64,000 bases of DNA from positions 4,092,001 through 4,156,000 of the forward strand of contig JAWMAR010000199.1 of assembly GCA_036785375.1 (NCBI GenBank). The letters run 5' to 3'. Below the pieces are notes generated by a model. That model did no database searches. It was not told where the DNA came from and worked only from the letters and a program-made list of their open reading frames with translations. Positions 921 through 49,044 of the stretch are shown in pieces (the first letter of the stretch is position 1; the number at the start of each line of letters is the position of its first letter). The stretch is from Leucoraja ocellata (Eukaryota). The translations under genes and the position numbers were made by a program.

Positions 921-2758
921 TGGTGAGTCCAGTCGATTGAGTAAAGTAAGACAATGAAGCGATCTGGCTGTTTAGAACAGCAGAAAATACGAAGCTGCTT
1001 CTAACAGGGTGGAGTTTGAATGAATGCTATACAAAACCCCACGAAAACATTCCCGTGCCAGCCATTATATCGAGGGTTTGTGATGCCCCAGGCCACCACT
1101 AGGTGCCGCTACAGGACCACCCCCCCCCCCCCCAGACCCCGAGGTCCAGAACGGAGCGGGGAACCGGACAAGGCCTCGGACCGAGTGGACACAAGGGACA
1201 GGACGGGCCATACAAGTGGGACTGGTGAAACAGAGCCAGGAAACGGTAACGGTGCAGGGGAAACAGGCACAACAGGTGCGGACGGACTCTACGCCGGGGT
1301 TGAGCCACCACCACCGGGCTATCGACATCCAGGTGGGCGTGCTTGAGGCGAGCGACCGAGACGATCTCCTCCTTGCCCCCGACATCCAACAGGAAAGTCG
1401 CGACGCCAGCACAGCCAGGAGGGCAGGGCAGGACAGAGTATCGGCAACCATGTTGAGCTTACCGGCCACGTGCTGGACGTCCGTGGTGAATTCAGACACG
1501 AACGCCAGGTGCCGCTGCATCCGGGCAGATCAGGGGTCAGACATCTTGGCCAAGGCGAACGTCAGGGGCTTGTGGTCAGTGAAGGACGTGAACGGCCTGC
1601 CCTCCAGAAAATACCGAAAACGGCAGACAGCCAGGTATAGGGCGAGGAGCTCCCGGTCGAAGGCGCTGTAACTGCGCTCCGGGGGCCGCAGATGACGGCT
1701 GAAAAAGGCAAGCAGCCATCGATGAGCTACTCGAGCGCCCCTCCAACAGCCGTGTCAGAGGCGTCTACCATGAGGGCCATCGGAGCAGCGGCCCGCGGGT
1801 GTACCAGCATGGTGGCTTTGGCCAACGCCTCCGTCACACCATCGAACGCAGCCACGGCCTCGGCTGTCCACACGAGGTCCTGTGGTTTACCAGCGAGCAC
1901 TGAAACAAAGGCCGCATGACCCTGGCAGTCTCCGGCACGAAACAATGGTAAAAGTTCACCGTGCCGACAAACTCCTGCAGCCCCTTGATGGTGAGCGGCC
2001 GAGGGAACTAGCCGCGGACCAGGTCCACCTTGGAAAAAAAGCTGCAGGGGGTCAGCGAAGTCCGATCCAGCGAGGAGCAGGCGGATGTCGTCAGGCATCT
2101 GCTCTAGGAAGGCCTGCTCAAACCGGTGGCCATCCATCAGAGCGAGCATCTCACTCATGAGTGCGAATGGCTTCCAATCTCCGAGGCCGTCTATGTGGAG
2201 CAGGCGGTGGCGCGATCGCAGCTGCTGAGCCCAAACGTGCGGAGCAGCCGGGCCTTGAGGCCCTCGTACTTGCTGTAGGATCCTACAGGTGGGGCAGCAA
2301 CCAGGTGGCCGTCTCTTGGCTAAGTGCCCCGACCCACGTAGAAATATCAGCTGGTGTCCACGACGATATTTCTAAGTTGGAATTGGACCTCAATGTGGGT
2401 GAATCACACTTGAGGCTGCTCCGCCCAGAAAACGGGCAGTTTCAGGCCCACAGCATTTGGCTGGGGTAGCTTGGCATCGGGGTTAGAGGCGGCTTGCATG
2501 GTCGAAGTCCGAATAAATGACCGGACTGACGGGGTCACCACTTTGGTGAGTCGAGTCGATTGAGTAAAGTAAGATTCTTTATTTTGAACGAGAATAAAGT
2601 GATTTACTCAAACGCCAAAAATACGAAGCTCCTTCTAACAGGTTGGAGCTTGAATAAATTTATACAAAAGTCTGCGAAAACACTCCCGCCATCACATGAC
2701 TGCGCCAGCCAAGAGCGAGGGTTCGTGATGCCCCAAGCCACCAGTAGGTGCCGCTACA
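921..2758 (-). mobile_element. Internally deleted Gypsy/Ty3 LTR retrotransposon
   Basis: LTRs at 2544-2758 and 921-1113 (minus strand TGTAGCGGCACC...CTCACCA). PBS TGGTGACCCCG at 2530-2540 is tRNA-Trp-like. G-rich PPT at about 1114-1133. Disrupted gag (KLPVFWAEQPQV), RT end/RNase H (MVDASDTAVGGALE, YSAFDRELLA, FTDHKPL, NMVADTLS) and integrase tail (VSVARLKHAH). Confidence 0.9.
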
Positions 2759-3644
2759 CTACATAACTTGAATGCAGTGCAGACTATGCACCTTCACCCT
2801 GGAACAATGCAATGCCAAACATCATATCATTCTCCTCTGTCTACAATGATGCCAGGGCACAATGAACATTCAAATATTTGTCAGGTTCAGACTGGGAGAG
2901 AGAAGGTCTCTGCTGAGCAGTTTGTTCAGCGATGTTAGATAAAGAGATCTTGTCAACGTGGACCTTGACATCTACATCTGCCGCTAATCCCAGTTATTTT
3001 TAACACACGGTAGGGGAGCCTGAATTCTATGTTTAGCATTTGAGCCTTTCCAATACACGCTGCTATTACTCATCTTTGTAACCGTCTGTCAGCAAGGATT
3101 GAGAAAATTGCTCTCGTTACTCACTGCGTTTCTGAGAGAGCTGTGAATATTCTATGATGATGGAGAAGCACAGAGCTGCTGCCTGTCCCACTGACTTACT
3201 CCAGCATTTTATGTCTATCTTCGATTTAAACCAGCATCTGCTGCTCTTTCCTGCACATTTAGTCTACCCAGGCTGCTTGTATCCACACAAGTGGGCAGGC
3301 GGCAGCTATTTCTGTCCAGGGTCCATCCTTAGACACAGTTCCTACTGACTTTCTCCGGCTGCAGTCTGCCAGCTCTGTAATTTACAGGGGATGTCACAGT
3401 TTTGGTTTCTCAGACTCACCGAGTCACGGACATGGATGGACTTTGTCCACCATGTCACCCAACGTCTGGGGCAACTCTGAAGAGAGCTGTTCCTCTCGGT
3501 CCCAGTCGCTGGAGAACCCCAAGCCACAGTACAAAATATCTTATTTATTGATCGCAAACTGGATGATGACTTCAACAAATCAAACTGAATTTTGAACCAA
3601 AAAATAACTTTAGATAATTAAGATAAATGAATGAACATTTTATC

Positions 3645-4425: not shown

Positions 4426-7400
4426 CTACAAGATAAATATCAAAGGCAAACCTTGGGAATTTGTGGGAAGTTACGCATTTAGGAGATGATAGCAAGACAA
4501 AAGTTTACATTAATTCATCACACACATGCCACCCAATCAGGAATTAGAGTAAGATTATGAAACGTGCCGACATTGTAAGTTATAGGAACAGAATTAGACC
4601 ATTCGGCCCATCAATGCATGCATTCCAATTGGAGTAGGCAGATGTTGCGTTACTGAGCAGCAACTTGGTGTAAAATACCAATGGTTCTCAGTAGAGTACG
4701 GAGAGCTGGAGCTGTCTGTCCACTGTTGGGCTGGGAACATTCTGGTGAATGGGCATGAGGTTAAACCCAGCGCAGGATAATGAGTCCAGTCATTTGTATG
4801 AAGTGTAATGGCTGCAGGGACAAGGTAGATGTAAGGTCGTTGACATGTTTTGGATTAAGTGTCTTCATGTAAACTAAGTTTATTATTGAAATAACCTGAG
4901 TAATTTAAAAAATATATATATATTAATTAGATTAGACATAATTCTCAATGTCAGGGACAGTCAGATCTTTATCCAACTGGTTTAAGCCAACATAAACAGC
5001 ATGACTCTGATGCTGAACAATCTAATCTGTTCCCAGTGGGGACACAAGAGACTGGTGTAACTCAGTGGGTCAGGCTGCATCTTTGAAGGGAATGGACAGG
5101 AAAGTTTCGGATCGAGATCCTTCTTCACTTTGTCCAGGAGATTGAAACTGTCAGCGCAGGGCTGGGGAATGATAAGGTTAAAGGCTGTGCAGTGGAGATT
5201 GCCAGAATCTAGAAGGGTCCTGGTGAATAGAACAGTCTACATCACAGACAATCATGGTCAGGTTTCACAGATTGCTCTGAATGAATGGTCCTTGTGGCTG
5301 GAGTCTGGCAAAAGAACGCACATTCACAAGATGAAGATCAGCAAATTGATGAAGATGTTCTCCATACAATATTTATAATTCACAGTTCATAAATTCATGT
5401 GATAGGAGTAAAATGAGGCCATTTGACCCATCAGACTCTACTCTGCCATTCAATCATAGCTGATCAATCTCTCCCTCCTAACCCCATTCTCCTGCCTTCT
5501 CCATAGTTGACTGTGACGGTGAATGGCAGTAGATGCTTGTTTGCTGTATATTTCACAGCAGACATTGAACGAGGAAATCAGAAATATGTGAGAATACACA
5601 GGGTGTAGTTTTGGAAATCGCCGGTGATAACAAGGTTACAGTCAATGCAACTTTAAACTAAAATAAAGCTAAATTTGCTGCATTCACGAAATTCTCGAAT
5701 GCGGTGTCGGAGCAAACCGTGGGGTTATTTAATGAGGCGCTTTCAAAATATTCAATTGAGTACAGTGGACTTGAGCTGCTGAGTATATTGATGGGACTAT
5801 TGAGCTAAAGGTGACGTAATGAGACTTGTGTGTCAGCAGGTAATTTGAATTGAATTTTCTCCCCGTAAGCAAGTGGTTTGCAAGATAAATATGTCAGTCT
5901 GACCCTGGCTGCCTAATCTGTAGAAACTGCACAGCTTGCTGGAACCAGAATGTTAAACTATTCTCTATCAATTATGTGTAAGAATGAACTGCAGATCCTG
6001 GTTTAAACCGAAGATAGACACAAAATACTGGAGTAACTCATCGGGACAGGCAGCTTCTCTGGAGAGAAGGAATGGGTGATGTTTCGGGTCAAGACCCTTC
6101 TTCTATTATGTCCTGGCCTCCCATAGCACAGTGAGTGAGATTAGAATAAAGATGACCAGGAACAATGGGAATAGTGGCCTTTGGCACTTCTATTGTAGGC
6201 ATGGATGTTACAGCATTAAAATGGGCCATTCAGCCCCTCTACTCTGTGGTGGCACTCAAGTCTCAAATATGCCCCCTCTCACCCATCTTCACCCAACTCA
6301 ACATGGCCTTCCATCCATATTCTCTCTTGTAACAACAGGAGAAATTAGGTGGAGAAGACCACTCGGCCCCATCAACATGGGATAGGATGATCATCTTAAT
6401 CCCAATTCTTTGTTGAAGGGCAGTGGCTGAGGTTGAATGAAGAAGAAGGGTCTCGACCCGAAAAGTCACCTATTCCTTCTCTCCAGAGAAGCTACCTGTC
6501 CCGCTGAGTTACTCCAGCATTTTGTGTCTCCTTTCATCAGGTATTAATGACTACATGGTGGTTATTTCCATATTATACTATCTTTTGTTCATTTAGGCCA
6601 TTTATGAAAGTCAGAACATTTGTGAGGAATGTCCAAATGTGGGTTTCTGCAACATTTCCCCCAAATTCATGACTGAAAACTGGAAGCATAAATTGGCAAA
6701 ATCTACCTCCAAAAATAAACCACTGCTTCCACTTTCCCATTTATTCTTCTTCATTATGATTTATTTTCTGTGCACAAGCATCAAGGATCTGCAGTAAATG
6801 ATGCAGTTTCTCATTTCTTAATTAAAATAGAAAAAAATGAATCCTCTCCTTAATGATATTCTGTCATTGCTAAGATGTGTACTTAATTGGCTGGTAAAAA
6901 GTGTGATATTCTCCTTGGCCATATGTAATATAATGAATCAAATATGTTTGTTACATTTTAATGCAACATTGGACAGTGCTAATGGAAGCTGCTGATAATG
7001 ATCTAACATGTTGTTCCACTGTTGAAACAAGTTGTTGAGCATCTATTCATTTACCATCTTATCAGAACTATTTACCTGTAGCAAGATGACATGTCAGTAG
7101 AACATCTTCAGATTTTGTTTCTCAAAACTCCAACACAAATGTTCACACCTGGCCATAAAATTAATGTATTGTATAATTAGATAATTAGAATTGTGGTGTT
7201 TCTGGTATTTTTGTTTATACCTCTCAGATTGTCTACACAAATTGTCATGCTCTTTTGGCATCTGCTGTGGGACTCTTCCACAGTAAATCTTCCACAGTAA
7301 AGCTGGCTGTCAACTGGTGATAGGCTTGTATGAGGCAGGTTAAGCATTGAGTTCCAGGATGAGATCTCTGACCATGGGATGTTTCTTTTTATAACCTGGT

Positions 7401-7924: not shown

Positions 7925-8107
7925 TTTTAGCTTTAGACTTTACAGATACAGCATGGAAATAGGCCCTTCGGCCCACCGAGTCTGTGCCTACCAGCGATTA
8001 ACCTGCACACTAACACTATCCTACACACTGGGGACAATTTACATTGTACAGAAGCCCATTAACCTACAAACCTGCACGTCTTTGGAGTGTGGGAGGAAAC
8101 CGGAGCA
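7925..8107 (-). mobile_element. HE1-like V-SINE, 3' half
   Basis: Reverse complement of the body and CR1-like tail of the full copy at 32943-33253. Truncated where the adjacent Rex1 fragment begins. Confidence 0.8.
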
Positions 8108-8754
8108 CCATTAAGAAAGGACAACAACGCCTATATTTCCTCAGACAGCTCAAAAAGTTCAGAGTCCATAAACACCTCCTGGTCCATTTCTATCAATCCA
8201 TCATTGAAAGCATCTTCACCTCCTCAATCACAGTCTGGTACAGAAACACTGACAGTCACTCACTACACAGAATACAGCGCATTGTCTCCAAGGCCTCCAG
8301 GATCATCAACTCCCCCCTCCCCTCAATCCATTCCATTTACCTCCAACGTACCTCAAAACGGGCAATAAAGATCATCTCGGACCCCTCCCATCCAGCAAAC
8401 CACCTTTTCCAGTCTCTCCCTTCAGGGAGGCGCCTCAGGTCACTTGCTACAAAATCCACCCACTTTAAAAACAGTTTCTTCCCCTCAGCAATAAGAACAC
8501 TCAATTCCCTCCAATAACAGACAATATTAAGGACTTCTGATGTATACAGTGTCTTGTCTATGGTCTTTGTCTGTTCTTTTGCACTATATATTGTTGATGA
8601 GATTTGTGATTTGTGTTGTGGTATGGATGAACTTTATTACTGTGATCTGTGTTGTTATTAGTGTTAATGTGACTAAAGCAGTGTACCATCATGTACCGAA
8701 CCCACATACCACCAACCCTGGTCGCCTGGCAAATAAACATTCTATTCTATTCTA
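8108..8754 (+). mobile_element. Rex1/Babar-type LINE, 5'-truncated, intact 3' ORF segment
   Basis: Uninterrupted IKKGQQRLYFLRQLKKF...FYQSIIESIFTSSITVWY...DPSHPANHLFQSLPSGRRLRS...FKNSFFPSAIRTLN to the stop at 8517, then 3' UTR, aataaac and an (attct)n tail. Confidence 0.88.
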
Positions 8755-10088: not shown

Positions 10089-10584
10089 TTTTTTAATAAA
10101 TATTGTTGCCCTCGTCAACCCCCCAATTTGATTCCTGTGTTGGGATCAGTGCTATTAACGCTGTTTAGTCTTCAGTGTCTTGCCCAAAAGGTCTTCCTTG
10201 TTTGTGAGACAAGGTAGACACAAAATGCTGCAGCAACTCAGGACCACAGGCAGCATCTCTGGAGTTACTTCCTACACATTTTGTGAACCAAGGTATTGAG
10301 TCCTGATCACCAGGGCAATTCCCCATAGGACCTGCTGACACATAGCCCTTCCAGCTAGTGATGTCCAAATCATGGAGCTTCCTATATCCATCTGCTCAAC
10401 CAGTCCAACAGCTCTTTCAATGAATTCCCAACATTTTGTCACAACCAAATAAATGTCTTGGAAGAAATGTTATTCACTCTCTCTCCAAGATTGTTCATGG
10501 TAGTATCAACAAGTTTATTTTTCTTGCCAGGAACCTCCAGCATAATCTGGGTGGATAGCAACCTGAGTTATGGCACAGATCTTA

Positions 10585-10833: not shown

Positions 10834-11008
10834 TCCCTGGATGGTAGTTAGGAATGAGAACTATTCTGAATTTCCACTTCACTGGAAGTTGGATTTAAGA
10901 ACTTCCAAATGTGTTTGTTTCTGTTTCAGTGTGTTGTCCAACGAGACCATTGTCTTTAAATTAGAGCTCTGCGTGCAAACATTTATAGGCTGGCTCGGCA
11001 ATGTTATT

Positions 11009-11207
11009 GTAGAAACAAGGAACTGCAGATGCTGGTTTACTGAAAAGGACACAAAGTGTTGGAATAACTCAGCGGGTCAGGCAGAACATGGATAGGTGAC
11101 GTTTTGAGTTGTGATCTTCTGAGTCTGAAGAAGAGTCCCGACCCAAATGTAATTTATCTGTGGCTGCCTCACTCGCTGAATTACTCCAGCACTTTGTGTC
11201 ATTTTCA
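11009..11207. mobile_element. Penelope-derived inverted (fold-back) terminal-repeat insertion
   Basis: Minus and plus copies of the element lie back to back, with a degenerate CTGAAGA core. Flanking direct repeat gcaatgttatt at 10998-11008 and 11208-11218. Confidence 0.7.
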
Positions 11208-13375
11208 GCAATGTTATTCTTTGCTGGATTAGTTCTTATGCTGTTGCAGTGCCCAATGTCTAGACGCCATTACCATGACTGATTTGACTCCATTATAAAA
11301 ATGTCACATTACACTTGCAAATCAGCCTCAGTATGCTTATTGATGGTTGCAAGAAAAACATAATTTAAAGCAGCGTAACTTGCTGGTACGGAATAATTAG
11401 TGGAACCAGACTGTAAGATCTTAATTGTTAGAACAGGGGCATCGTTAGGTCAGTTGAAGGAAACTCCCTTTTACCTGGGAATTTATCTGATATTAGTGGC
11501 AATAATTGGCTTCCTCCCTTTATATTCTATTCTACATTATAGGAAATTACACACATAACAAAACAAGATGACAGCCTGAAAGCAGATGTGCTGTCTGCTA
11601 ATCTTTATTCAAAGTTGCTTAATCAAATCATCTGTGAATTTAAATTGAAGTTGCACAAACACATTTCTATTACTATTAATATCAGTTAAAGGTCTGAAAG
11701 TACTCATCTTATGCCAGCTGTTTCAGCACCACCAATGTTATGTTCCTCATGGAACAATGGAATCCATATATCCATGTCTGTGCCATGCTGTGTAGACTGA
11801 ACCACACAGTAGGGCAGGCACCAACACACCTGACCCCCCCCCCCCCACCTCTGGCTCCCAGTCTGGTCCTGGATCCACATGTACTAACGGCCCACATGCA
11901 CTTCAGATCTGGCCCCTCAGCAGAGTCAACATTGACTGCACAATGAGTCATCGGAGAAGGCAAAGGTTAAACTAACTTTCTCTTGTATTTATCTAATATT
12001 AAATTAATTTTCACCACATAGCGTTAATAATTAAATGTATTATTTTTTTCAATTTTTAATATTAATTATTCCTTTACCGGTCTTTAACTGCTCCTGTAAG
12101 TAGTGGCACTTGGTACCAGATGAAAAGCCTTTGGCAGTGCAGGCTGTCAGAAGGCCTTCAGGGTGGTGCCAGGTGGGTTCAGAATCCTCCGTCTGAGTCT
12201 CCTCTGCATCTCCATCTCCTCCTGGAACCGCTGCAGCAGTGGTTATGGGGGTTTACAGCTTACTGCTCCTTAAGGGAGAAGTCCAACATCAATGCTTGTA
12301 GCATATGCTGATCAACAGCATTTAGCATTTCAAACAAATACAATTTTAATTACAAAGGATATATGCACTATATAAATGCAATTTGTGCATCTTTCAGCTA
12401 TTTTCCATGTCATAGGAGCAGAATTAGGCCATTCAGCCCATCGAATCTACTCCGCCATTCAATCATGGCTGATCTATCTTCTCTCGACCCCATTCTCCTG
12501 TCTCCTCCCAATCTTGACACCCGTACTAATAAAGAACCCTTCCTTTTCAACAAGAGCTTTAACATCATATTTAACATATTTAGTATTCATGTAGATCAAT
12601 TTGAGGAAGGAACTGAGATGCTGGTTTTTCAGTTTGACTTTTGCTATTGTTGGATGTAACGATTCACAAAATAATTAGAATAGTTCTGTACTTGTTCACC
12701 CCACTTGATCTCATCCTTCAGACCAACTTCCCAAGTTAGAATCTAGCTACATCTTAGATGAATGTGGTGCCAGGCCTGCAGCCTATCCTGTTGACAAAAT
12801 TAATGCTTTGTACAATCTGTCTGGAGTCCTAATATTGAACTTGTCTCATCTGAACTGTGGCCCGGTACTTCTAAATAAATCTGCACGTATTCCTTTTATT
12901 CTTGTGTGATGTGCATCAAAAGACCTTTCTAGGCAGGTGGTTTCTCAGGAGCAGAGCTCACTCCCCTAAACACAAACAACCAGTCGTGTCTCATCCTCTG
13001 CTGACCCCTGGGGCTGTCAAACTGCATCATTTGTACTGATGAACTGGTCAACAGTGCTGGAACACTCACATTTATTCTTTGATGCAAGTTGACCTGTGAA
13101 GGAGGTGATTTATGAGGGAAGATTTGATAACCTGCACTGCGTAACCACATACCAGAAAGTACTTTACCATAAGATACATCCATGTGTAATTCAGCTTAAG
13201 ATCATTTCTCCTGAGATATTGTGGGGATAGTGGCTCTATACTCGCTATGGTTCTATGCAGGTTATGCCTGTGGCCCTGACCCGAACCCTAACCCTATGCA
13301 TGTGGTTGAGGAATCTATTGAAATATCTAAGATTGTGAGCAACAGTTTTGATGTAAATGGATCAAAAACTTGTCA

Positions 13376-13503
13376 GTGTCTGAAGAAGGGTCTCGACCCG
13401 AAACGTTGCCCATTTCCTTCGCTCCATAGATGCTGCCTCACTGAGTTTCTCCAGCATTTTGGTCTACCTTCGATTTTCCAGCATCTGCAGTTCCTTCTTA
13501 AAC
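13376..13503 (+). ncRNA. Penelope-type terminal repeat with intact minimal hammerhead ribozyme core
   Basis: CTGAAGA(13380)-a-GGGT-ctcg-ACCC-GAAAC-GTT, followed by the family tail ..ccagcatctgcagttccttcttaaac. Confidence 0.7.
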
Positions 13504-14030
13504 TGATAGTACAAGACGTTGGTGAGGCTGCACTAGGAGTATTGCGTTCTGCTTTGGCCACCCTACTATAAGAAGGATGCCATGCTGGAATATGGACAGA
13601 GATTAGTGAGGATTTAGCTAGGATTTGAGGACCTGGGCTAACGGGAGAGATTGGGTAAACTGGGACTTTTAGCTCATGAGATTATCTTCAAGAAGTGTAT
13701 AAAATCATGAGGGGGATAGATAGGGTGAATGCAAAAAACAGAGGATGTAGATTTAAGGTGAGAAGAGAAAGATTTAATAGGATTCTGGGGGACAACCTTT
13801 TCACTCAGAATGATGGCGGTGTTTGGACTTAGTTATCAGCGGAGGTAGCTGAGGCAGGTACAGTAACAACATTTAAAAGACAATTGGACAGGTGCATGCA
13901 TACATGGGTAGGAAAGGTTTAGAGGGATATTGGCCAAATCTCAGTAAACGGGACTAGCGTAGATGGGGCATCTTGATCGGCATGGATGATTTGGACTGAA
14001 GGGCCAGTTTCTGCGCTGTAAGACATCGTG
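13504..14030 (+). mobile_element. CR1/HER1 LINE 3' fragment (degenerate)
   Basis: Visible similarity to 3870-4425 (tacaagacgttggtgagg..., gtgtataaaatcatgagggg, tttaaggtgaga). Confidence 0.75.
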
Positions 14031-18034: not shown

Positions 18035-18653
18035 AGTTATTACTTATCTCTGCAGCATCAGCTATTTTTTTTTTTAACCTTGGCTTCTTTATGGCCTTGA
18101 AAGAAGTACATGTTATTACTCAGGTTTCCATCTTAATGTCTTTATTAAAAAGACAACCTGTCCTCAATATTGTGCTCCATATAATTTACAAAGTCATTCA
18201 GACTTGGCACCAAGCCATTCTTTTGTTCGAATACACCTTGCTTTTGTATTAGAAGAAGAACAACTACATTTTGTAAACTATGTTAGATTTGACCATTGGC
18301 TCTTTCATTGGTACTGTGTGGGTTGAGGGAAGGGAAGGGTCATACTCTGCAGAGTCATGGCCAGAATAAATCATAGTAGTCCCAGGAGTGCCTGGTAAAG
18401 AAACAAACTAATTAGTGCTCCAAATGGACACTGAGCAGGGAACAAAGAATTTTCATTCATGAATCACACAAGAGCATGCTGACTAAAAACTCCATGGCAA
18501 GATGAAACTATTGGGAAGTGATTAGGAAAAGCTTCACTCCAATGTTCAGTTGGTTAAAGATGAAAGTACAGGCAATTATGGCCCACCTATTCTGAACATG
18601 ACCAGCAAAAGTCAGATTCAACAAAATGAGACTAAATATTCACCTCTGGCGAT

Positions 18654-19340
18654 TTGCCCTCCACAGCATCCAACTTCATCATTCCCCAGCCCCACTCTTC
18701 ACACTTCCACCTCACTGAACTCATTTCCACATGCCTTGATTCCATCCCAGCCCCCATGTCTTGTTCAATAACTCTTCAATCTCCAGGCCTCCATTGCCAC
18801 ATCTTCACCATGGGCATCTTCACCATGGGCATCTTCACCGTGGGCATCTTCACCATGGGCATCTTCACCATGGGCATCTTCACCGTGAGCATCTTCACCG
18901 TGAGCATCTTCACCATGAGCATCTTCACCATGAGCATCTTCACCATGGGCATCTTCACCATGGGCATCTTCACCGTGGGCATCATCACCGTGAGCATCTT
19001 CACCGTGAGCATCTTCACCATGGGCATCTTCACCATGGGCATCTTCACCATGGGCATCATCACCGTGGACATCATCACCATGGGCATCATCACCGTGGAC
19101 ATCATCACCATGGGCATCTTCACCATGGGCATCCAGTCCTACTACACTTCTATTCCCCACCAGGAAGGTCTCAAGGTCCTCCAGGTCTTTCTCAATCAGG
19201 GACCCAACAGTTTCCCTCTACTAACACTCACCTCCACCTGGCGGAACTTGTCCTCACCCTCACCAACTTCTCTGAGTTAAAGGTGTAGCCATGGGTACTT
19301 CATGGGCCCCAGCTATGCCTGCCTTTATGTGGGTTACTAT
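18654..19340 (+). mobile_element. Penelope-like element reverse-transcriptase remnant
   Basis: LPSTASNFIIPQP..TELISTCLDSI..HIFTM[G/D]..IQSYYTSIPHQEGLKVL..PSTNTHLHLAELVLTLTNFS..KGVAMGT(x)MGPSYACLYVGY corresponds to PLE RT motifs. It carries deletions and frameshifts. Confidence 0.8.
18800..19129. repeat. 15-bp minisatellite (CATCTTCACCATGGG) x22
   Basis: Read directly: 330 bp with variants ccgtg/ccatg, ggg/gag/gga and ttc/atc. Confidence 0.97.
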
Positions 19341-19697
19341 AACTCCACTGTGGCACAAAGACTCCAAAGGACAGAGGGAACTTTCTGTGCAATTTTCAGT
19401 GTAGGTTGCTTTTAAACTTGGTCCGGGAAGCAAATAGCTGATGTCTAAACTCGTCATTCACCAAATGATTTAAAGCTTAATAATTGGATTGAAAAATGTG
19501 TGGAAAGCAAAATTCACACAGTAGAAACATTCACTGTCAGCTTGTTTCCCACTTACAAATTTAAACCAGATTCAGGAACAAGGATGTAAGTCGTGCTGAC
19601 GTACCATCACAATATTGATGAAATGCCAGTCAATGATCAACTCATTCCATTAATCACATTAATCTGGCTCCACTCCAATGCACATCAAGGATCCCAC

Positions 19698-19921: not shown

Positions 19922-20056
19922 TCATCAGTCTGAAGAAGGGTCTCGACCCGAAACATCGCTCATTCCTTCTCTCCACAGATGCTGCCTGTCCCGAGTTACT
20001 CCAGCATTTTGTGTCTATCTTCGATTTAAACCAGCATCTGCAGTTCTTTCTTACAC
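19922..20056 (+). mobile_element. Penelope-type terminal repeat with hammerhead core (GAAACATC variant)
   Basis: catcagtCTGAAGAagggtctcgacccGAAACATCgct plus the family tail. Followed by a Rex-like 3' end with (cttga)n to about 20147. Confidence 0.7.
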
Positions 20057-20767: not shown

Positions 20768-20870
20768 TATCAGGCTGAAAGAAGAAGGGTCTCGACTCGA
20801 AACGTCACCCATTCCTCCACTCCATAGATGCTGCCTCACCCGCTAAGTTTCTCCAGCATTTTTGTCTACC
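20768..20870 (+). mobile_element. Penelope-type terminal-repeat insertion with 10-bp TSD
   Basis: gaagaagggtctcgactcGAAACGTCaccc... flanked by ttctataatg at 20758-20767 and 20871-20880. Confidence 0.7.
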
Positions 20871-23049
20871 TTCTATAATGATTCCTTCTGCACCATCCAT
20901 TCTTCATTGAATGTTTCTCTGGATCTTTGCATCCATCATGATCAGATGTCCAAAGGATAAAGATTGATACTTGGAGGGGAATCCCTTGCTGAAATTCCTT
21001 CAACGACCCTACTACAACAATCTGATCCGACTCTTTCAGATTATTTACATTTATTTTCTTGGCTCACCTTTTCGATTTGAATTCTTTCCATCGAACCAAA
21101 AAGGACTAAGTTTCTCCAGTTGCTTCTCACAAATCAAATCTCACGGACGAGTTCAGTTTTTGTGGCTCTTTTATCCATTGCTTGACGATTAGACAAAGCA
21201 CTCAACAAGTAGATTGATAAACACACAATGTCTGAAGGGCCTCGACCCAAAACGCCACCTATTCCTTTTCTCCAGAGATGCTGCCTGACCCACTGACTTA
21301 CTCCAGCTTTTTGTGTCTGACTTCCATTCTGTTGTTTTGGACACATGGGTCAATATTTTATTGGCTTTGTTAACTTCTGCTCCGCAATGATTAGATGTTA
21401 AACAGTGATTCTGCTAAGAAGGTCTCTTTTACCTTCCCTCAAATTTACATATTGTCCAGATTGGCCTTTTGTGCTGATAGTTTAACAAACATGACAGTAA
21501 ATTGCATCTGCCCTGTTCGGTCCACCCATAACCAATCTTCACTCTGTTGCTCCTGCATTGTTTCACAATCAGCTCTTGTTTTCTACTCCTCATTCATTTT
21601 CACAATCGGATTCAACCGTTGTATTTTACTTTGAATCCTAACAGTTTTGAACTCAATTGGTAATCTCTGAAGCAAAAATGTTGCAAGTATATATATAAAA
21701 CATTTTAGAGTTGATCACTGTGCCTTTGTTATTTCTTGGCAAGGAAAATCAAAGAACTGAGGCAGCTGGGAACATCTCGATGTAAAGCAAAGCTGAATAA
21801 TATCTGACCAGGTTGTTAACAATGATGGAGTAACAGTTGAAAAGTTAGTTGAGGAGTAAGGAGACAATTTCCAAAAGAAAGAAGTCAATATTACTCAACA
21901 CCAAATACAGGTTATTTTAGTTTATTGATGAGAACACTTGGATTGTAATCGAATCGTCAGGGATTCAGAATCCATTGACATAAAGACCTCACCTCAGGCA
22001 AAACAAAGAAGTGTATCGTGGTTTGTGGGCGATTTTAGGACTGACATCATTACAGATCAACCTCAAGCTGCTAAAAGTTCCATCAACAATCCCACTGATG
22101 TTATTTGCTGAGGAAACATAAGATTTACATGCGTAGTTTAGCTTAGGGATACAGCATGGAAACAGACCCTTCAACACATCGAGTCCACGCCGACCATCGA
22201 TCACCCGTCCACACTAGATCTACGTTAACCCACTCTCGACACACGAGGGTCATGGGGTCAGAGGCCAATTAACCTACAAACCCGAATGTTGATTGGGTTG
22301 TCAGTGAAAACCAACACAATGAAATGACCGTAAATGATGCATGAATTAAGTTATATTTTAAATAAACTAAGGAAGTGCTGAAACTAAATTTGTAAACCTC
22401 CTTATCAGGCGGTTGATGACAGAATGAAGAGCCTTGGCCAAGGTTCAGGAGCTTGTGGGTGATTTTGAAATAAAGAAATGAGTCTCATCCCCCCCCCGTT
22501 TGGGAGAGAGAATGAGAAAACATAAACCAAATGCAAGAAATGCAAATCCTGTGGCATTTCCCTTCATACAAGTGGAAACTGGCCATATCTATTTGTCAAA
22601 CACAAATGGTGTTATGAGTAAAAAATACCACATTCCATCAAATGAACAATCTTGTGTTATTTCTGTTCCGCTGACATTTGTTAAATAGCAATGATGCACA
22701 AGAACAAGGTGCACCCAATGCAGCAACGGACCTGGCAATTAAGATAAGGAACATTCAACAGTGGGACCATGGCATGTTGGTGTCTTCTTTTAAAATTTGG
22801 GCTAAACTGTGGAATATGTTTTAATATTTTGGACACCACATGTCAGGGACAAGCAGGGCTGAACATTGTACATCACTCACCAAGCCCACACACAGACAGA
22901 TACAAGTAGACCCTGAACATACTGTACTTCCCATCATCTGCACCTCCAGAGCACTCACTTTCCAAATCTGACCATATCTGTGCATAGTTGTGCATGAGAA
23001 GTTGAGGTGATCGGTATGTTCTCATGGAATGCATTTATTGTAATTCATT

Positions 23050-23949: not shown

Positions 23950-24514
23950 GTGAGTTTCAGATACATCGGCTTCAAGAGCATTTGGGATTATCCCAGCTTG
24001 AATGATTTCCAATATGGAGATATCAGAGATTTCAAATCAGTTATAGTCATGAGCTGGGCATTCGGAATTCTGAACAGGATGCTTCTGTCTGCATCATCTC
24101 CATTACAACTGCGTGTGATATTTGGTTTATCCTGTCATAGTAACAGTAAATACATTACATCTGTGGGATACTGCAAGTTTGCACTAACACACATCTATAT
24201 CAGGTGTGCAGAACATTCATGTGTAGGAAGGAACTGCAGATGTTGGTTTACACTGAAGGTGGACACAAACTAAGTGTCTCAGGGCAACATCTCTGGAGAG
24301 AAGGAATGGGATGTGGAACACTAACATGATCCAGTTATCAGGTCTCAGTGTAACAAGCAACAAAGATAAACAGTATACGACGCTATCCCTGGACACGATC
24401 TTGCCATCCACACTGGAGGAGGTCTGTGACTGAGATATGCTTCCATAATCCCGACAAGTTTAGAACCATAGATGGAACAGAATATTCACATCCTGGTTCC
24501 TGGTTCTCCGTTGG

Positions 24515-24695
24515 CCTGGAGCGGGGACTGCGGGACTCGGAGCTGGGGCGGTGGGACCCGGAGCTGGGGCGGCGAGACCTGGAGCGGAGACTGCGGGACC
24601 CGGAGCGGAGACTGCGGGACCCGGAGCTGGGGCGGTGGGACCCGGAGCTGGGGCGGCGAGACCTGGAGCGGAGACTGCGGGACCCGGAGCTGGGG
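24515..24695. repeat. GC-rich 21-bp minisatellite with higher-order structure, inside a retroposon ending (ATTCTA)n at about 25050
   Basis: Units of the types GGGACCCGGAGCTGGGGCGG and GAGACCTGGAGCGGAGACTGC alternate. Downstream are AATAAA and an attcta tail. Confidence 0.8.
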
Positions 24696-26219
24696 CAGCT
24701 GCCTGGAGCTGATGCTGTGGCGGGCCGTCTCGGAGAGGAGACGGCGTTCTGGCTTTCAGCGGCGGTGACATCACCACGGAGGTCCGCTGGACTGGAGGAC
24801 GGCATCTCCGGCCTGGATCGATCGCCTCAGCGTAGAGGGAGAACAAGGAGGGAAGAGACGGAGACTAAAGACTTTGCCTCCATCACAGTGAGGATGTGCT
24901 TGGTGAACTCACTGTGGTGGATGTTTAATTTGTGTTTATTGTATGTTTTGTTTTTATTGGTTCTGTGTATGACTGCAGGCAACATAATTTTGTTCAGACC
25001 GAAAGGTCTAAATGACAATAAAGGATTCTAATTCTAATTCTAATTCTAATTCCTAATGTAAGTAGCCAACCAAGCACATTGGTTGCCAGGGATTCATCTT
25101 GTATCAGTAACTCCAGGGTCATTTACTTTATTCTTTGCCTGAGAAAGTGGCAAAAGTGAATGAAAACATTGTGAACTTTGGCAGCGGTCTTTGAGTTTAA
25201 AACCGTTTGGCACCATCAGCGTGGTTGTAAGAAATGGCGGGATTCAAAGAACCAGTGAACTTGTGAAGAAACGAGGTCCAGTTAAAACAAAGACAGGGGA
25301 TGCTGGTCTCCAGTTACATCCACTCTCCTCACACCCATCGAAACAACGGCTGGAAAACAAAATCCATCTCTAACCAGGATCTAAATTGGTGGGCATCGAT
25401 TGGACGACTGATCATTACAAACAGTGATTTTTGCTTCATTCATTTTCAGTAATGTTGAAACATCAACAGAATTTTACCTCCTGTGTTCACCACCTCAACC
25501 CCAGAGAACCACAACCGTACATTCACCACCTCAACCAACCTCACTGAACCACAATGGTCTTTGCACTCTTGTGGTTGCTCTACACAGCTAGGCTTTTACA
25601 CTATCATGGTCTAGTTTACTTAGAATGACTAATTGTTTATTATATATTTATTGTTCTTGTTTCCAACGTGCCTGTAACACTGCAGCAAGTAATATTGCCA
25701 TCATTCCGGTTCTTAACCGGTGCATATAACAAATGATGCATCCTTGACACACAAGTCTTGACATACTTTACTGTGATGCTGCAAGTATGTTTCCATTCCT
25801 TTCAGTGAGCTCGGCAGCAGAGTAACAGAACTATGAGAGCCCACTGCAGCTCAAGACCAAATTGACCAGAGTGATTGCTGGGACCATCCAAGCCCAGAGT
25901 CCAACATCACTCAGGAACATGTGTTCATTGGTTGAGTATCTGCTCCATTGTCCTGGTTCAAAAGATAAACATCTACATATGAGCTGCAGCAATATCTGGG
26001 GATAGTTGGAGGCAGGAGAAATGATGCATGAAGCCAGGCCGGCCGTTAGCACGTCATGTTTTGGACCGATGGGAAACATTAAGAAGCATCTTTTGTGCTG
26101 CTGGAATAAATGTGCTGGTGACTGCTATTGCACTCTGAAGAATTGGGCACAGCTCCGTCTAATGCTGAAGTGAGTGTACCCGGGAGGTTTTCTGACCAAG
26201 TCCACTTGTCTAAGTTTTA

Positions 26220-28451: not shown

Positions 28452-29408
28452 NNNNNNNNNNNNNNNNNNNNNNNNNNNNNNNNNNNNNNNNNNNNNNNNN
28501 NNNNNNNNNNNNNNNNNNNNNNNNNNNNNNNNNNNNNNNNNNNNNNNNNNNNNNNNNNNNNNNNNNNNNNNNNNNNNNNNNNNNNNNNNNNNNNNNNNNN
28601 NNNNNNNNNNNNNNNNNNNNNNNNNNNNNNNNNNNNNNNNNNNNNNNNNNNNNNNNNNNNNNNNNNNNNNNNNNNNNNNNNNNNNNNNNNNNNNNNNNNN
28701 NNNNNNNNNNNNNNNNNNNNNNNNNNNNNNNNNNNNNNNNNNNNNNNNNNNNNNNNNNNNNNNNNNNNNNNNNNNNNNNNNNNNNNNNNNNNNNNNNNNN
28801 NNNNNNNNNNNNNNNNNNNNNNNNNNNNNNNNNNNNNNNNNNNNNNNNNNNNNNNNNNNNNNNNNNNNNNNNNNNNNNNNNNNNNNNNNNNNNNNNNNNN
28901 NNNNNNNNNNNNNNNNNNNNNNNNNNNNNNNNNNNNNNNNNNNNNNNNNNNNNNNNNNNNNNNNNNNNNNNNNNNNNNNNNNNNNNNNNNNNNNNNNNNN
29001 NNNNNNNNNNNNNNNNNNNNNNNNNNNNNNNNNNNNNNNNNNNNNNNNNNNNNNNNNNNNNNNNNNNNNNNNNNNNNNNNNNNNNNNNNNNNNNNNNNNN
29101 NNNNNNNNNNNNNNNNNNNNNNNNNNNNNNNNNNNNNNNNNNNNNNNNNNNNNNNNNNNNNNNNNNNNNNNNNNNNNNNNNNNNNNNNNNNNNNNNNNNN
29201 NNNNNNNNNNNNNNNNNNNNNNNNNNNNNNNNNNNNNNNNNNNNNNNNNNNNNNNNNNNNNNNNNNNNNNNNNNNNNNNNNNNNNNNNNNNNNNNNNNNN
29301 NNNNNNNNNNNNNNNNNNNNNNNNNNNNNNNNNNNNNNNNNNNNNNNNNNNNNNNNNNNNNNNNNNNNNNNNNNNNNNNNNNNNNNNNNNNNNNNNNNNN
29401 NNNNNNNN
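28452..29408. other. Assembly gap (957 N)
   Basis: Run of Ns inside a sema6b intron. Confidence 0.99.
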
Positions 29409-30685
29409 AGTATAAAAACTCTGCATTGGCCAACACCAGTTGGTGTTTAGCTTTGTTTAATTGATGTACTTAGTGTTGCCTCACTTTTCTGCCACTGTAC
29501 AAGACACATCATTGTACCAAGTTGCAAGGTCTTTCACTCTGTGAGGAATTCACGACATTGGGACAAATTAATTGCAGTCGCCGTCTCCAAGTCATTCCAA
29601 GATCTCAAAATCTGCCTTCTCTTTATATCTTCCTCAGTACTTTCCGTCTTTCTGCTTTCTGCAGAGCTTCACCGATCTCATCTTCTGAACTGAAACTTAC
29701 TTCTCCCCAAGTTTATAGGGAGGAACTGCAGATGCTGGTTTACATTGAAGGCATACACAAAACACTGGAGTAAGTCAATGGGTCAGGCAGCATCTCTAAC
29801 TTTGCTCAGCCTTGTTGACCCACACTATGTACCCAAGCCCTTGTCAACAGCTTCTTTTCACAACCGACACTGCAAATCAATAAATACTGGCCAGTAATGT
29901 TGCCTGTACACAAAAGACACATCACATTAAAACAGTGATGAAAGGTTGAAGAGAACATTAGCTGACTGTTTACTGGTTGGAAAAAACAAAGAATCAGAAT
30001 GCCTCTGGGAGCAATCCAAATGTTAGCTAATCATCATGGATAATCTAGTTAAAGGGGATTATCAATCATAGCAGTAGTTTCAAGTGTTACAGCTAAAAAT
30101 AGGCCATGTATCATGTTTTATTCAATATCACAGGGAGATACAGAGCACAAACAGGCCCTTCTGTGCACCGTCATCAAATACCCTTAGCTAGTACTAATCT
30201 TACATTAATCCCAGTTTCATGCATTCTTCCCACATTGTCATGAACCCATCAGATTCTACCACTGTGAAAGCTGGGGTGATTTACAGTGGGCACTGTATAC
30301 ACTGGGGGTGGTTTACAGTGGGCACTGTACACACTGGGGTGATTTACAGTGGGCACTGTACACACTGGGGGCATTCAGCCTCCCCACCTTTATGTATTTA
30401 GGAGGAAAACTGGAACATTTGGAAAAGCCACACAGAAGCAGGGAGAATGCAGGGAGGAACTGCACTCAGATATCGCCAGAGGTCTGGGTTAAACCTGGGT
30501 GACTGGAACTGTGATGCAGCAATTCTATTCACTCTGCCACCATGATGCCCTTACGTAGAATAGCTATTTCAACATACTAGCTTGTATGTAGCTGAACCAA
30601 CATACTAGCTATAGGTAGCTATATCATACATGCTATAGGTAGCTGTACCAACCTACCTGCCAGCAAGATAATATCCTTCAATGGG

Positions 30686-31202
30686 AGACAAAAACACTGG
30701 AGAAACTCAGCGGGTGCAGCAGCATCTATGGAGCGAAGGAAATAGGCAACGTTTCGAGCCGAAACTCTTCTTCAGACTGATGTAAGGGTGGGGTGGGGGG
30801 GGCGGGAAGAAGAAAGGAAGTGGTGGAGCCAGTGGGCTGAAGGAGAGCTGAGAAGGGAAGGAGAAAGTAGGGACTACCTGAAATTAGAGAAGTCAATGTT
30901 CATACCACTGGGGTGCAAACTGCCCAATCGAAATACGAGGTGCTGCTCCTCCAATTTACGGTGGTCCTCACTCTGGCCATGGAGGAGGCACAGGACAGAA
31001 AGGTCGGATTCGGAATGGGAGGGGGAGTTGAAGTGCTGAGCCACCGGGAGATCAGGTTGGTTATTGCAAACCGAGTGGAGGTGTTCAACGAAGGGATCGC
31101 CAAGCCTACTCTTGGTCTCACCGATGTAGATCAGCTGACATCTAGAGCAGCGGATGCAATTTTTACCTTCGATTTTCCAGCATCTGCAGTTCCTTCTTAA
31201 AC
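30686..31202 (-). mobile_element. 5'-truncated Penelope-like element: GIY-YIG endonuclease end, 3' terminal repeat with hammerhead, inverted terminal-repeat piece and 13-bp TSD
   Basis: Minus ORF CIRCSRCQLIYIGETKSRLGDPFVEHLHSV..LPVAQHFNSPSHS..RKLEEQHLVFRLGSLHPSGMNIDFSNFR* (stop at 30874). Hammerhead core at 30748-30775. Inverted tail at about 31160-31202. atccttcaatggg at 30673-30685 and 31203-31215. Confidence 0.9.
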
Positions 31203-31398: not shown

Positions 31399-31502
31399 GG
31401 TACACAAAAATGCAGGAGAAACTCAGCGGGTGCAGCAGCATCTATGGAGCGAAGGAAATAGGCAACGTTTCTGGCCGAAACCCTTCTTCAGATATTATAT
31501 TA
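31399..31502 (-). mobile_element. Penelope-type terminal-repeat insertion with hammerhead core and 14-bp TSD
   Basis: Minus strand CTGAAGAagggtttcggccaGAAACGTTgcc. atgttaatattcaa at 31385-31398 and 31503-31516. Confidence 0.75.
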
Positions 31503-32460: not shown

Positions 32461-32618
32461 AGTAGGAAAGAACTGCAGATGCCAGTTTAAATCAAAGGTG
32501 GACACAAAATGCTGGGGTAACTCTCTGGAGGACAGGCAGCATCTCTAGAGGACAGGCACCGTTCCTTCTCTCCAGAGATGCTGCCTGTCCCTCTGAGTTA
32601 CTCCAGCATTTTGTGTCG
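32461..32618. mobile_element. Fold-back Penelope terminal-repeat insertion with 13-bp TSD
   Basis: Inverted arms (gacacaaaatgctggggtaactc / gagttactccagcattttgtgtc). acccagtttgagg at 32448-32460 and 32619-32631. Confidence 0.8.
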
Positions 32619-32727
32619 ACCCAGTTTGAGGTGTCCTGTGAAGTGTGACGCGGTGTGTATTAAATAATTCCTGTTTATTTGTGCCCCAGCAACAGCACTG
32701 AAGTCATGAATCTGCTCTTTATTACAG

Positions 32728-34004: not shown

Positions 34005-34343
34005 CCAACAACAGGCGGTGAACATGGGATGACATGTAACAACATATGTGAACATGGGATGAACATGGAACAACAGGCTGTGAACATGGGGTGAACATGG
34101 AACAACAGGCGGTGAACATGGGATAACATGTAACAACATATGTGAACATGGGATAACATGTAACAACATCTGTGAACATGGGATTACATGGAACAACATA
34201 TGTGAACATGGAACAACAGGCTGTGAACATGGGATGAACATGGAACAACAGGCTATGAACATGGAACAACAAGCTGTGAACATGGGATGACATGTAACAA
34301 CATCTGTGAACATGGGATAACATGGAACAACAGGCTGTGAACA
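34005..34343. repeat. Compound minisatellite (21/30/32-bp units built on TGAACATGG...AACAAC)
   Basis: Read directly. Confidence 0.9.
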
Positions 34344-34784
34344 TTCCCGATGAATTCCACACTTGAGAAAGATTAGTCAGGCATTTTACAAGACTACATT
34401 TGAAGGCACTTCTTCAGAACCTGGTGTTTTGAATGAACTTGGGTGATATAGAGTTAAGAAAACCCTGCCAATGTTCAATGGGCTGAACACAATGTGCTGC
34501 TCCAGAGTGTCAGCTGTAAACCACAGAGGGAATTCTTGTGCTGAACACAGCATCCGGATTAGAATTCACTCAAATAATCGAAGCTTGACATATCTTTAAT
34601 GCTTTTCTTACACCACATTGAAACTCAGACTACAGGGGGAAACTGGCATGGACCTTGTCAAAACTGACGGCCTCATAGAGATCTCAGAAGGCAGCTGAAT
34701 GAAAATGAGTTTGCAGAGAAAGGCAATGTTAGCTTTGGAGAAAAAAAGGTTACGGAAGATGGACACACAGTATCACAGCAGGAA

Positions 34785-35297: not shown

Positions 35298-35425
35298 TGT
35301 GAGAAGGAACTGCAGATGCTGGTTTAAATCGTAGACACAAAATGCTGGAGTAACTCAGCGGGACAGGCAGCATCTCTGGAGAGAAAGGGTGGGTGATGTT
35401 TCAGGTCGAGACCCTTCTTCAGACT
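35298..35425 (-). mobile_element. Penelope-type terminal repeat with hammerhead core, abutting a minus-strand CR1 3' end (35108-35297)
   Basis: Minus strand agtCTGAAGAagggtctcgacctGAAACATCaccc. Confidence 0.7.
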
Positions 35426-40769: not shown

Positions 40770-41430
40770 ATGGGACCAAGTCAAGTCCAGTGAGGCTCAG
40801 GTACCAAGAAAAACCTTGCTTGCAGCATTGCACACACACATGCACACGCACACACACATGCACATGCACACACACACACGAACACACACGCACGCACACT
40901 GAAGGCATTAAACATAAATTACACAAACTTTTTAAAATAAAGAAGTCTGTGGAAATAACATGCTTTTAGTACAAAACACAATTGAAAATTAAGCAGGTGG
41001 ACCATAGTGGCCTTCATCAAGCTATCACTAGATAGGTTGGCTGAAGAACCTGATGGAGTCACGCAGCAAGCCCTCAGCCTGACATCCATCTCAATAAAAT
41101 ACCCTATGCTCCCTGAACATTGTAGGAAAGAAGCTGTTCTTCAACCTGGTGGTGTGAGGCTTCACGTGTCTGAGCCAACTGCCCAATGGTAGAGATGAAC
41201 TGTGCGCAGGGGATCCTTGATGGTAGATGCCACATTCTGGAGGCAGTGCCTCATGTGAATGAATGGGAGGTATGTGTCCATGATGGACCAGGCTTGGTCT
41301 ACCTCCCTCTGCAGCCTCTTGCATTCCCGCATTGGAATGGCCATACCAATCCATGATGCCACCTGTCAGAATACTTTGTATAGGACATCTGTAGAAGTGT
41401 GTTGGGGTCTTCAGAGACATACAGAACCTG
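40770..41430 (-). mobile_element. Rex1/Babar LINE 3' fragment
   Basis: Minus ORFs FYRCPIQSILTGGIMDWYG, ECKRLQREVDQAWSI and VKPHTTRLKNSFFPT. Confidence 0.75.
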
Positions 41431-47879: not shown

Positions 47880-48070
47880 TATCTCTACCATAGAGAGTAT
47901 CTCCACCATGGAGAGTATCTCCACCATAGAGAGTATCTCCACCATGGAGAGTATCTCTACCATGGAGAGTATCTCTATCATGGAGAGTGTCTCCACCATG
48001 GAGAGTATCTCCACCATGGAGAGTATCTCCACCATGGAGAGTATCTATCATGTGGAGTACCTCTATCATG
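47880..48070. repeat. 18-bp minisatellite (TATCTCCACCATGGAGAG) x~10
   Basis: Read directly. Confidence 0.95.
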
Positions 48071-48601: not shown

Positions 48602-49044
48602 CCCGACCCAAAACGCCACCTATCCATGTTCTCCACAGATGCTGCCTGACCCGCTGAGTTACGCCAGCACTCTGTGAAACGTCACCTATCCATGTTCTCC
48701 ACAAATGCTGCCTGACCCGCTGAGTTACTCCAGCACTCTGTGAAACGTCAGCTATCCATGTTCTCCACAAATGCTGCCTGACCCGCTGAGTTACTCCAGC
48801 ACTCTGTGAAACGTCAGCTATCCATGTTCTCCACAGATGCTGCCTGACCCACTGAGTTACTCCAGCACTCTGTGAAACGTCACCTATCCATGTTCTCCAC
48901 AAATGCTGCCTGACCCGCTGAGTTACTCCAGCACTCTGTGAAACGTCAGCTATCCATGTTCTCCACAGATGCTGCCTGACCCGCTGAGTTACTCCAGTAT
49001 TTCGTGTCTTTTTGTAAACCAGTATCTGTAGTTCCTTGGTTCTA
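48602..49044 (+). repeat. 66-bp satellite array (6 units) of the Penelope terminal-repeat 3' half
   Basis: GAAACGTC recurs at 48676, 48742, 48808, 48874 and 48940. The last unit runs into the normal family tail. Confidence 0.92.

Follow-up and report, generated by a model that had tools for sequence, protein, structure and literature searches.

Dispersed pseudo-LTRs of a Penelope-like element with minimal hammerhead motifs at a skate sema6b locus

The stretch of Leucoraja ocellata DNA analysed here, below called the window, is 64 kb long and contains a 957-base assembly gap (N) at 28452-29408. Its open reading frame at 42489-43511(+) matches a semaphorin-6B-like protein of the skate Rhinoraja longicauda at 92% identity and those of other elasmobranchs at 87-88%, and seven exons of the R. 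longicauda protein could be placed at 17132-43508(+). The identity of the ORF and the mapping of the exons together make the window a batoid sema6b locus. The sema6b exons span 17132-43511(+), with the last coding exon at about 42513-43511. Residues 1-319 of the semaphorin-6B-like protein have no match within the 64-kb window, and their exons are therefore expected upstream of it. The focal repeat at 13378-13503 would thereby lie in sense orientation within a sema6b intron, where it represents one intact hammerhead copy. No orientation bias was seen among the 15 copies of the repeat within sema6b, 6 being sense and 9 antisense. Elsewhere the window holds LTR-retrotransposon-like RT/RNase H debris at 1068-2371(-) (PF17919), LINE-like C-terminal ORF remnants at 8014-8517(+), matching PF09004, and at 41091-41468(-), and minisatellites at 51141-51920, 24515-24696, 34007-34344 and 47880-48046, besides the one that interrupts the RT remnant described below.

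Positions within the repeat are numbered from the C of CTGAAGA (hammerhead C3) as +1. A degenerate 28-nt pattern, allowed at most 3 mismatches, gave nine matches (6440, 13380, 19930, 20779, 30775, 31491, 35422, 54581 and 63579) against none in 100 dinucleotide shuffles, and the decayed sites 5128, 6105, 11124, 21231 and 62284 were recovered too. A profile built on the nine copies gave 44 matches at E<=1 and none in the reversed window. Merged, these amount to 27 loci and 4357 bp, or 6.9% of the non-N bases, a tally that includes endonuclease remnants and two 66-bp arrays and whose weakest member, 60769, has E=0.075. By pattern and profile searches all 14 sites listed in an earlier note on this DNA carry the repeat, and its coordinates for the eight main sites were right to within 1 nt. 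The high copy number that it had put forward is borne out locally, as is its remark that most copies are without coding DNA (25 of the 27 loci). Copy density, and the fact that most copies begin right at the ribozyme edge, are the notable features of the repeat.

The focal unit is a solo pseudo-LTR (pLTR) of subfamily B on the plus strand, made up of the core, a body of about 63 nt and a 33-nt tail, and adjoins at 13504 a repeat which we take to be CR1-like. Its minimal type I hammerhead at 13380-13407(+) begins with CUGAAGA (13380-13386) and a bulged A (13387), followed by helix II (13388-13391 with 13396-13399), GAAA (13400-13403), a loopless ACGU (13403-13406) and U at H17 (13407), so that the CUGANGA-H core, GAAA and NUH are all present. 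Helix I has 2 bp (13378-13379 with 13408-13409), and the cut site is predicted after 13407. The consensus of PMC4209133 comprises CUGANGAH, a G..C helix II, GAAAN, a palindrome and NUH, and 2-bp helices I occur there. The motif fits this PLE consensus and its helix II covaries, which supports the earlier reading of a minimal hammerhead. The palindromic stem III that was proposed with it stands as a loopless ACGU, but in AACGUC the palindrome is ACGU alone. A strict descriptor was passed by five loci of the window, whereas 60 Markov controls gave 0.03 on average. Rfam models matched no hammerhead family in the window or in 13330-13540, and the Rfam miRNA matches in the window are head-to-head hairpins. 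Of the five strict loci, two (13380 and 30775) keep the palindrome at 15.2/16.2 together with a helix I of 2 bp, and they are the only two at which every structural element is retained.

The second fully intact copy, at 30686-30777(-), has a short 3′ end and a compensatory A-U pair in helix II. Further tail-bearing solo pLTRs lie at 19923-20056(+), with its 5′ end at -7 and its palindrome lost by CpG decay, at 35298-35425(-), with a broken palindrome, and at 5976-6104(-), with its 5′ end at +3. Short solo pLTRs were found at 20773-20873(+), with a 10-bp target-site duplication (TSD) and a 4-nt duplication that breaks the core, at 31399-31492(-), with a 14-bp TSD, a broken G10.1-C11.1 pair and membership in subfamily B, at 63578-63660(+), with an intact core and a helix I of 1 bp, at 6440-6533(+), at 21229-21325(+), with a deletion in the core, and, in decayed form, at 5041-5128(-), with a compensatory pair in helix II, and at 62194-62290(-). 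Fragments of presumably LINE-like repeats follow tail-bearing solos directly at 13504, 20061(+) and 35297(-). A chimeric pLTR-LINE origin of 13380 and 35422 was considered and dropped, the composites having no TSD; for 19930, a direct repeat of 8 bp around the copy and the neighbouring repeat fragment is a candidate only. The optional tail of about 33 nt (13471-13503(+) in the focal copy) lies between the two 3′-end classes, and in the anole PLE the tail lies between two internal RT start sites (PMC11167929).

Copies also occur as head-to-head pairs. Those at 11006-11203, at 32462-32621 (without core) and at 50421-50560 (without core, 17-bp TSD) carry TSDs and have one long and one short 3′ end each. 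An older pair at 58312-58503 has short and long ends, and another at 51915-52102, which adjoins a 21-bp minisatellite array, has end classes that were not assigned. Truncated and decayed material comprises a tail-bearing pLTR cut at +45 (3169-3257(+)), core-less arms resembling it on the minus strand (10211-10264, 24221-24310 and 29717-29797), an old decayed copy at 38730-38815(-), and further ones at 59314-59400(+) and, weakly, 60768-60840(+). In the older copies 38813(-), 52004(-), 52027(+) and 58390(-) core position 7 seemingly is T (CUGAUGA-like), which suggests an earlier subfamily. Two pLTRs contain internal 66-bp tandem arrays of the same unit, built of +21..+87, one at 48604-49040(+) ending with the tail and one at 56444-56964(+) with a short end. 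The units are about 96-97% alike and retain GAAACGUC and the cleavage site without CUGAAGA and helix II; the first and last units differ between the arrays, and both arrays close with normal PLE 3′ ends, which suggests a mobile array-bearing variant.

Its sequence identifies the repeat as the pseudo-LTR at the 3′ end of a Neptune-type Penelope-like element (PLE). Remnants of a GIY-YIG endonuclease directly adjoin the hammerhead-bearing pLTR at 31161-30874(-) and 54674-54740(+), and relatives of this endonuclease carry PLE RT and GIY-YIG, so that the earlier label "Penelope-derived" is upheld. The first remnant is part of a composite insertion with a 13-bp TSD at 30686-31202(-), which contains in order an inverted tail arm (31164-31202(+)), the C-terminal 95 aa of the Neptune-type endonuclease (30874-31161(-)), whose stop codon lies 99 nt before C3, a polypyrimidine 3′ UTR (30776-30873(-)), the hammerhead and a short pLTR. 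The UTR is 80% pyrimidine across 60 nt and free of AG from -62 to the AG of the CAG|T immediately before the core. The 5′-inverted insertion at 54488-54760 has pLTR, hammerhead and 3′ UTR on the minus strand (54488-54673) and the endonuclease end with the start of the UTR on the plus strand (54674-54760); this second endonuclease end thus stands in inverted orientation next to the UTR of 54581, a twin-priming geometry. The endonuclease peptide of the window is 80% identical to part of a predicted Leucoraja erinacea protein and has 1846 relatives at E<=0.001, the longer of which combine RVT_1 with GIY-YIG and show the CX2-5CxxC linker as well as the DKG motif. The relatives P0002, P0003, P0162, P0273 and P0274 have the linker and a PLE RT with DKG, and L001 has the linker. 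The CX2-5CxxC linker marks both Neptune and Nematis PLEs (PMC8557442), and the Neptune-type assignment, which would rest on the linker of relatives, carries this ambiguity with Nematis. The fragment linked to 30775 begins after the linker position. A decayed PLE RT remnant at 18636-19345(+) is unlinked and contiguous with no pLTR; its FTM-motif codons have expanded into a 22-copy 15-bp minisatellite (18800-19133) that breaks it.

The window endonuclease fragment gave no Pfam match, a PDB search with P0162 returned nothing informative, no full-length PLE (pLTR-ORF-pLTR) is present in the 64-kb window, and no full-length batoid PLE protein was found in the protein search. The same order of parts recurs in a Neptune-like PLE end in L001 (contig CBDDTI010000588.1, 1501-1529(-)), which comes from the prokaryotic genome collection and where linker, GIY-YIG, stop codon and hammerhead follow one another and the endonuclease is 51% identical to that of the window. 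Its helix I of 4 bp, in which the first two pairs are swapped as compared with the skate, and its outer helix II pair hold even though the search pattern did not fix them. L001 is filed as a bacterial MAG and is probably eukaryotic contamination. Among 154 scanned PLE-like proteins, three (P0130, P0203 and P0256) have what seems to be a translated hammerhead motif downstream of the endonuclease region. The skate gene models P0002, P0003 and P0004, among them neuromedin-U receptor 1 and receptor-transporting protein 3-like, terminate in PLE endonuclease sequence and are either annotation artefacts or carry exonised fragments.

Fourteen copies picked for a recognisable core were aligned, the core being 11 positions and the cells 5′ of the apparent start being excluded in five copies. 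Helix II, closed by G10.1-C11.1 with compensatory changes, is paired in 92.9% of cells and has double changes at three of its four pairs; covariation as high was reached in 9 of 500 shuffles, which ignore the kinship of the copies. Helix I has 2 bp where its 5′ strand is kept (60.7% of cells paired), the ACGU palindrome is unpaired in 5 of the 13 copies that could be scored, and for both 13380 and 30775 its self-duplex is calculated at -5.7 kcal/mol. Non-CpG departures from the majority base affect 3 of 127 core cells and 109 of 835 body cells (p=9e-5), a core conservation that is inflated because the aligned copies were picked for a recognisable core, and private changes affect 3 of 127 and 38 of 835 (p=0.35). 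Differences between subfamilies A and B preserve the fold, consisting of wobbles, C/U at H17 and a loop change. As regards the covariation and core conservation raised in the earlier note, helix II covaries and the core is spared between subfamilies. The pattern fits what selection on master elements, followed by neutral decay of inserted copies, would leave, and the inserted copies would be mostly dead.

Folding predictions, like the Rfam result, count against activity. Each of the four monomers folded had a helix II probability of at most 0.01, since its core is taken up in pairing with the 3′ flank, and the structure that the folding model predicts for it is an inactive core/3′-flank hairpin. 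This competing hairpin is 91% paired across copies, but its covariation was not above that of shuffles (144 of 500 as high, against 9 of 500 for helix II). Cofolding did not recover a double hammerhead, and six copies were not exceptionally stable by MFE folding (z -0.34 to +1.69), so that folding energy gives no support for a ribozyme. A structure in the downstream body and tail was dropped, its consensus fold being a weak 8-pair helix of -2.4 kcal/mol with one covarying pair. Minimal hammerheads are reported to cleave weakly and as multimers only (PMC4209133), dimer cleavage is attributed to Lunse et al. 2017 as cited in PMC6765202, and the ribozyme of the anole PLE requires its own protein and is dispensable for insertion in vitro (PMC11167929). 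Dimer cleavage is plausible here, and most copies have lost an element that it would need.

Own TSDs, claimed earlier for several copies, were found as 10-17 bp repeats at 6 of 28 tested intervals (the 11121 pair, 20779, the 30775 composite, 31491, the 32555 pair and the 50507 pair), but the focal 13380 copy has none; 3.8% of 393 random draws reached the TSD score, mostly in tandem repeats. The 3′ ends of 26 arms fall into two classes, 14 at +87..+98 and 12 at >=+119, with none between. A long and a short 3′ end are combined in five of the six head-to-head units, the sixth being unclassed, and four of the six have TSDs. The 5′ ends of 25 arms were placed by hand, two arms of one pair sharing a junction and the set excluding 7 old arms, array-internal units and a tail-only arm: 13 lie at -7..+3, six at +42..+46, three at +29..+30 and one at +15, and two run into the UTR. 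In uniform simulations over two ranges, 13 ends within a 10-nt window came up in 0 and 2 of 20000 runs, and the end hazard per nt is 0.15 at -7..+3, 0.009 downstream and 0.006 within the pyrimidine tract; only two of the 13 clustered ends are TSD-bounded. Upstream flanks of 11 edge-starting solos are 43-68% pyrimidine, against 78-83% in the true UTR, and the boundary is therefore not a detection limit. It lies at the ribozyme edge, with the cleavage site about 30 nt farther downstream, which means that cleavage did not set the template's 5′ terminus. Cleavage-defined 5′ ends were dropped as a candidate, 3 of 25 arms starting at +29..+30.

At the boundary stands TCAGTCT, which we take to fit the initiator consensus, weakly so for a 7-nt motif with frequent chance matches. 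Three arms reach upstream of the start that such an initiator would predict, and TCAGTCT is also compatible with a 3′ splice site after the 60-nt pyrimidine tract. At 30776-30835(-) the tract and the CAG right before the core resemble a 3′ splice site, and 31491 and 63579 begin exactly one base after CAG. The intron of Drosophila Penelope ends at helix I (PMC4209133).

In a tree of 18 arms the endonuclease-linked 30775 is sister to the solo 31491 (support 94/95), and both are nested in subfamily B with the focal 13380 (96/94), which means that the solos need no master of their own. Endonuclease-linked 54581 groups among other solos in the same tree, and subfamily A, with eight arms, has no endonuclease-linked member in the window. 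Of the very high-copy non-autonomous family proposed in the earlier note, the high local copy number stands, but a separate non-autonomous family is not established, as endonuclease-linked and solo copies share subfamilies. The simplest reading of these relationships would be that the solos are short products of coding elements, and part of the family may be a true non-autonomous lineage. ARAGORN, which would miss decayed heads, detected no tRNA-like head, and the window holds no tandem units with complete hammerheads, the 66-bp arrays having no 5′ half of the core. Dispersed single minimal hammerheads have been taken as truncated PLEs before (PMC4209133).

Identity, anatomy, end distributions and covariation are direct observations, and the model that we consider probable on their basis is that the solos are 100-135-bp by-products of an autonomous batoid Neptune-type PLE; we infer its priming sites, template 5′ end and catalysis. 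Such an element would carry the minimal type I hammerhead just after the stop codon of its endonuclease, and the GIY-YIG domain of its protein would nick AT-rich DNA. Reverse transcription would start inside the RNA at about +92 or +125, as suggested by the two end classes and the anole data, and would copy through the uncleaved ribozyme, which the copies contain. The cDNA would usually end at the 5′ edge of the ribozyme (-7..+3), where the boundary is observed, most likely because the template RNA begins there (the initiator-like TCAGTCT in the upstream pLTR) or alternatively because RT stalls in front of the C-rich tract. The head-to-head pairs would arise when both target strands are primed, one at each start site. 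The ribozyme would be selected in masters and cut after GUH only as a dimer formed through the ACGU palindrome, in tandem master transcripts and probably assisted by protein. Against the model stand the helix I of only 2 bp, the preference of the monomer for the core/3′-flank hairpin, and the secondary 5′-end groups at +42..+46 (six arms) and +29..+30 (three).

The closest alternative differs from this model only in the cause of the boundary, in that no RNA 5′ end would lie there and ordinary 5′ truncation, starting from the 3′ pLTR of a long or circular RNA, would result from stalling of RT at the ribozyme fold or on entry into the C-rich tract. The two copies that read through the boundary into UTR and endonuclease, the second cluster of ends at +42..+46 at the base of a predicted hairpin, and the typical 5′ truncation of PLEs (PMC8557442, PMC8969392) are in its favour, but the steep rise of the end hazard at -7..+3 over both the downstream region and the tract, and the template-limited short products of the anole PLE in vitro (PMC11167929), lead us to regard it as possible but rather doubtful. 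We think it unlikely that the solos are instead a dedicated SINE- or retrozyme-like family, in which 100-135-bp solo pLTR masters would be self-transcribed and rely on the Neptune protein for copying in trans. In its favour are the sharp 5′ boundary in 13 of 25 arms, the missing coding DNA at 25 of 27 loci, the TSDs on solos, and subfamily A with no endonuclease-linked copy in the window; pLTRs of rotifers acted in trans (PMC3846280), and retrozymes have been proposed as pLTR derivatives (bioRxiv 2026.07.22.740005). It is opposed by the lack of a detected tRNA-like head, by 5′ ends that spread over 10 nt with ten arms cut further in, by solo 31491 and focal 13380 sharing one subfamily with the endonuclease-linked 30775, and by arrays that have no 5′ core half and no tandem hammerhead units.

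That this lineage retains the hammerhead only as a vestige, its shape inherited and its cleavage lost, appears equally improbable to us: the changes between subfamilies spare the core and preserve the fold, and helix II covaries while the competing hairpin does not (9 against 144 of 500). The vestige is suggested by the 2-bp helix I, the 91% pairing of the competing hairpin across copies, the Rfam result, the low in vitro activity of minimal hammerheads (PMC4209133), the hammerhead mutants without effect on in vitro insertion (PMC11167929) and the eight of nine Xenopus dimers that stayed uncleaved (bioRxiv 10.64898/2026.07.22.740005). That the tail of some unrelated SINE or LINE resembles the hammerhead core by chance, conceivable for a short motif with no matching Rfam model, has next to no probability left; it is refuted by the PLE endonuclease linked to the repeat at two loci and in L001, and the tails, inverted pairs and consensus fit also speak against it.

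The reading of the solos as by-products of a Neptune-type PLE may be extended, speculatively and with considerable doubt, to batoid Neptune elements that mass-produce "strong-stop-like" 100-135-bp insertions by reverse transcription from tail sites in the 5′ pLTR to a capped RNA end at the ribozyme edge. In its boldest form, ACGU-mediated RNA dimers would be the two templates of the head-to-head pairs and the core-less 66-bp arrays would be trans-cleaved substrates. If true, this would be SINE-like amplification without a SINE, with about 80 strict minimal hammerheads and about 400 pLTR loci per Mb by extrapolation from one window, possibly the densest ribozyme load of any vertebrate genome. 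The uncleaved core in most copies agrees with the in vitro data in pointing to unprocessed RNA as template. If the density holds genome-wide, skate genomes would provide a very large collection of insertions whose ends are sharply delimited, on which the PLE mechanism could be tested with regard to RT starts, the cause of 5′ ends, head-to-head formation and ribozyme use. This interest depends on density and end statistics from one window and needs genome-wide confirmation.

The class itself is known, dispersed single PLE minimal hammerheads having been reported in 2014. The batoid family is undescribed in the literature searched, and Repbase, Dfam and the retrozyme supplements (one chondrichthyan), which fell outside that scope, may hold it. 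Non-LTR retrozymes (PMC7229834; bioRxiv 10.64898/2026.07.22.740005) are likewise non-coding, hammerhead-bearing and pLTR-related, and are reported in the one chondrichthyan sampled (bioRxiv 10.64898/2026.07.22.740005). They are tandem units each with a full hammerhead, whereas hammerheads in the skate window occur as monomers or head-to-head, and its tandem pLTR arrays lack CUGANGA and helix II; membership was rejected on this difference. Poseidon PAc of Anolis (Frangieh et al. 2024, PMC11167929) resembles the skate repeat in two internal RT starts framing the tail, in the cutting and extension of both strands and in a hammerhead upstream of the start sites. It belongs to another clade and its ORF begins in helix II, whereas no ORF start is established in the skate pLTR, and protein-assisted cleavage has been shown for PAc while that of the skate ribozyme is a prediction. 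Neptune PLEs (Craig et al. 2021, PMC8557442; Arkhipova et al. 2013, PMC3846280) share the C-terminal GIY-YIG, the CX2-5CxxC linker found in relatives of the window endonuclease, the pLTR, inverted 5′ copies, a 30-40-bp tail at one end, TSDs and solo pLTRs; the skate window differs in having no full-length copy, in the dominance of solos and in the sharp boundary at the ribozyme edge. The minimal hammerheads of metazoan PLEs (Cervera & de la Pena 2014, PMC4209133) agree in CUGANGA with one unpaired base, G10.1-C11.1, a short helix II, a palindromic 15.2/16.2 without loop III, a short helix I, a site just 3′ of the endonuclease, and an occurrence mostly as dispersed singles with some opposite-strand pairs. 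The helix I of the skate, at 2 bp, lies at the low end of their range, and the examined parts of Fig. S3/Table S1 of that paper include no chondrichthyan. Strict motifs number 5 per 63 kb in this one window, compared with about 4,000 per genome in the coelacanth and about 9,000 in Xenopus (PMC4209133). On the features tested, the repeat appears to belong with the PLE minimal hammerheads.
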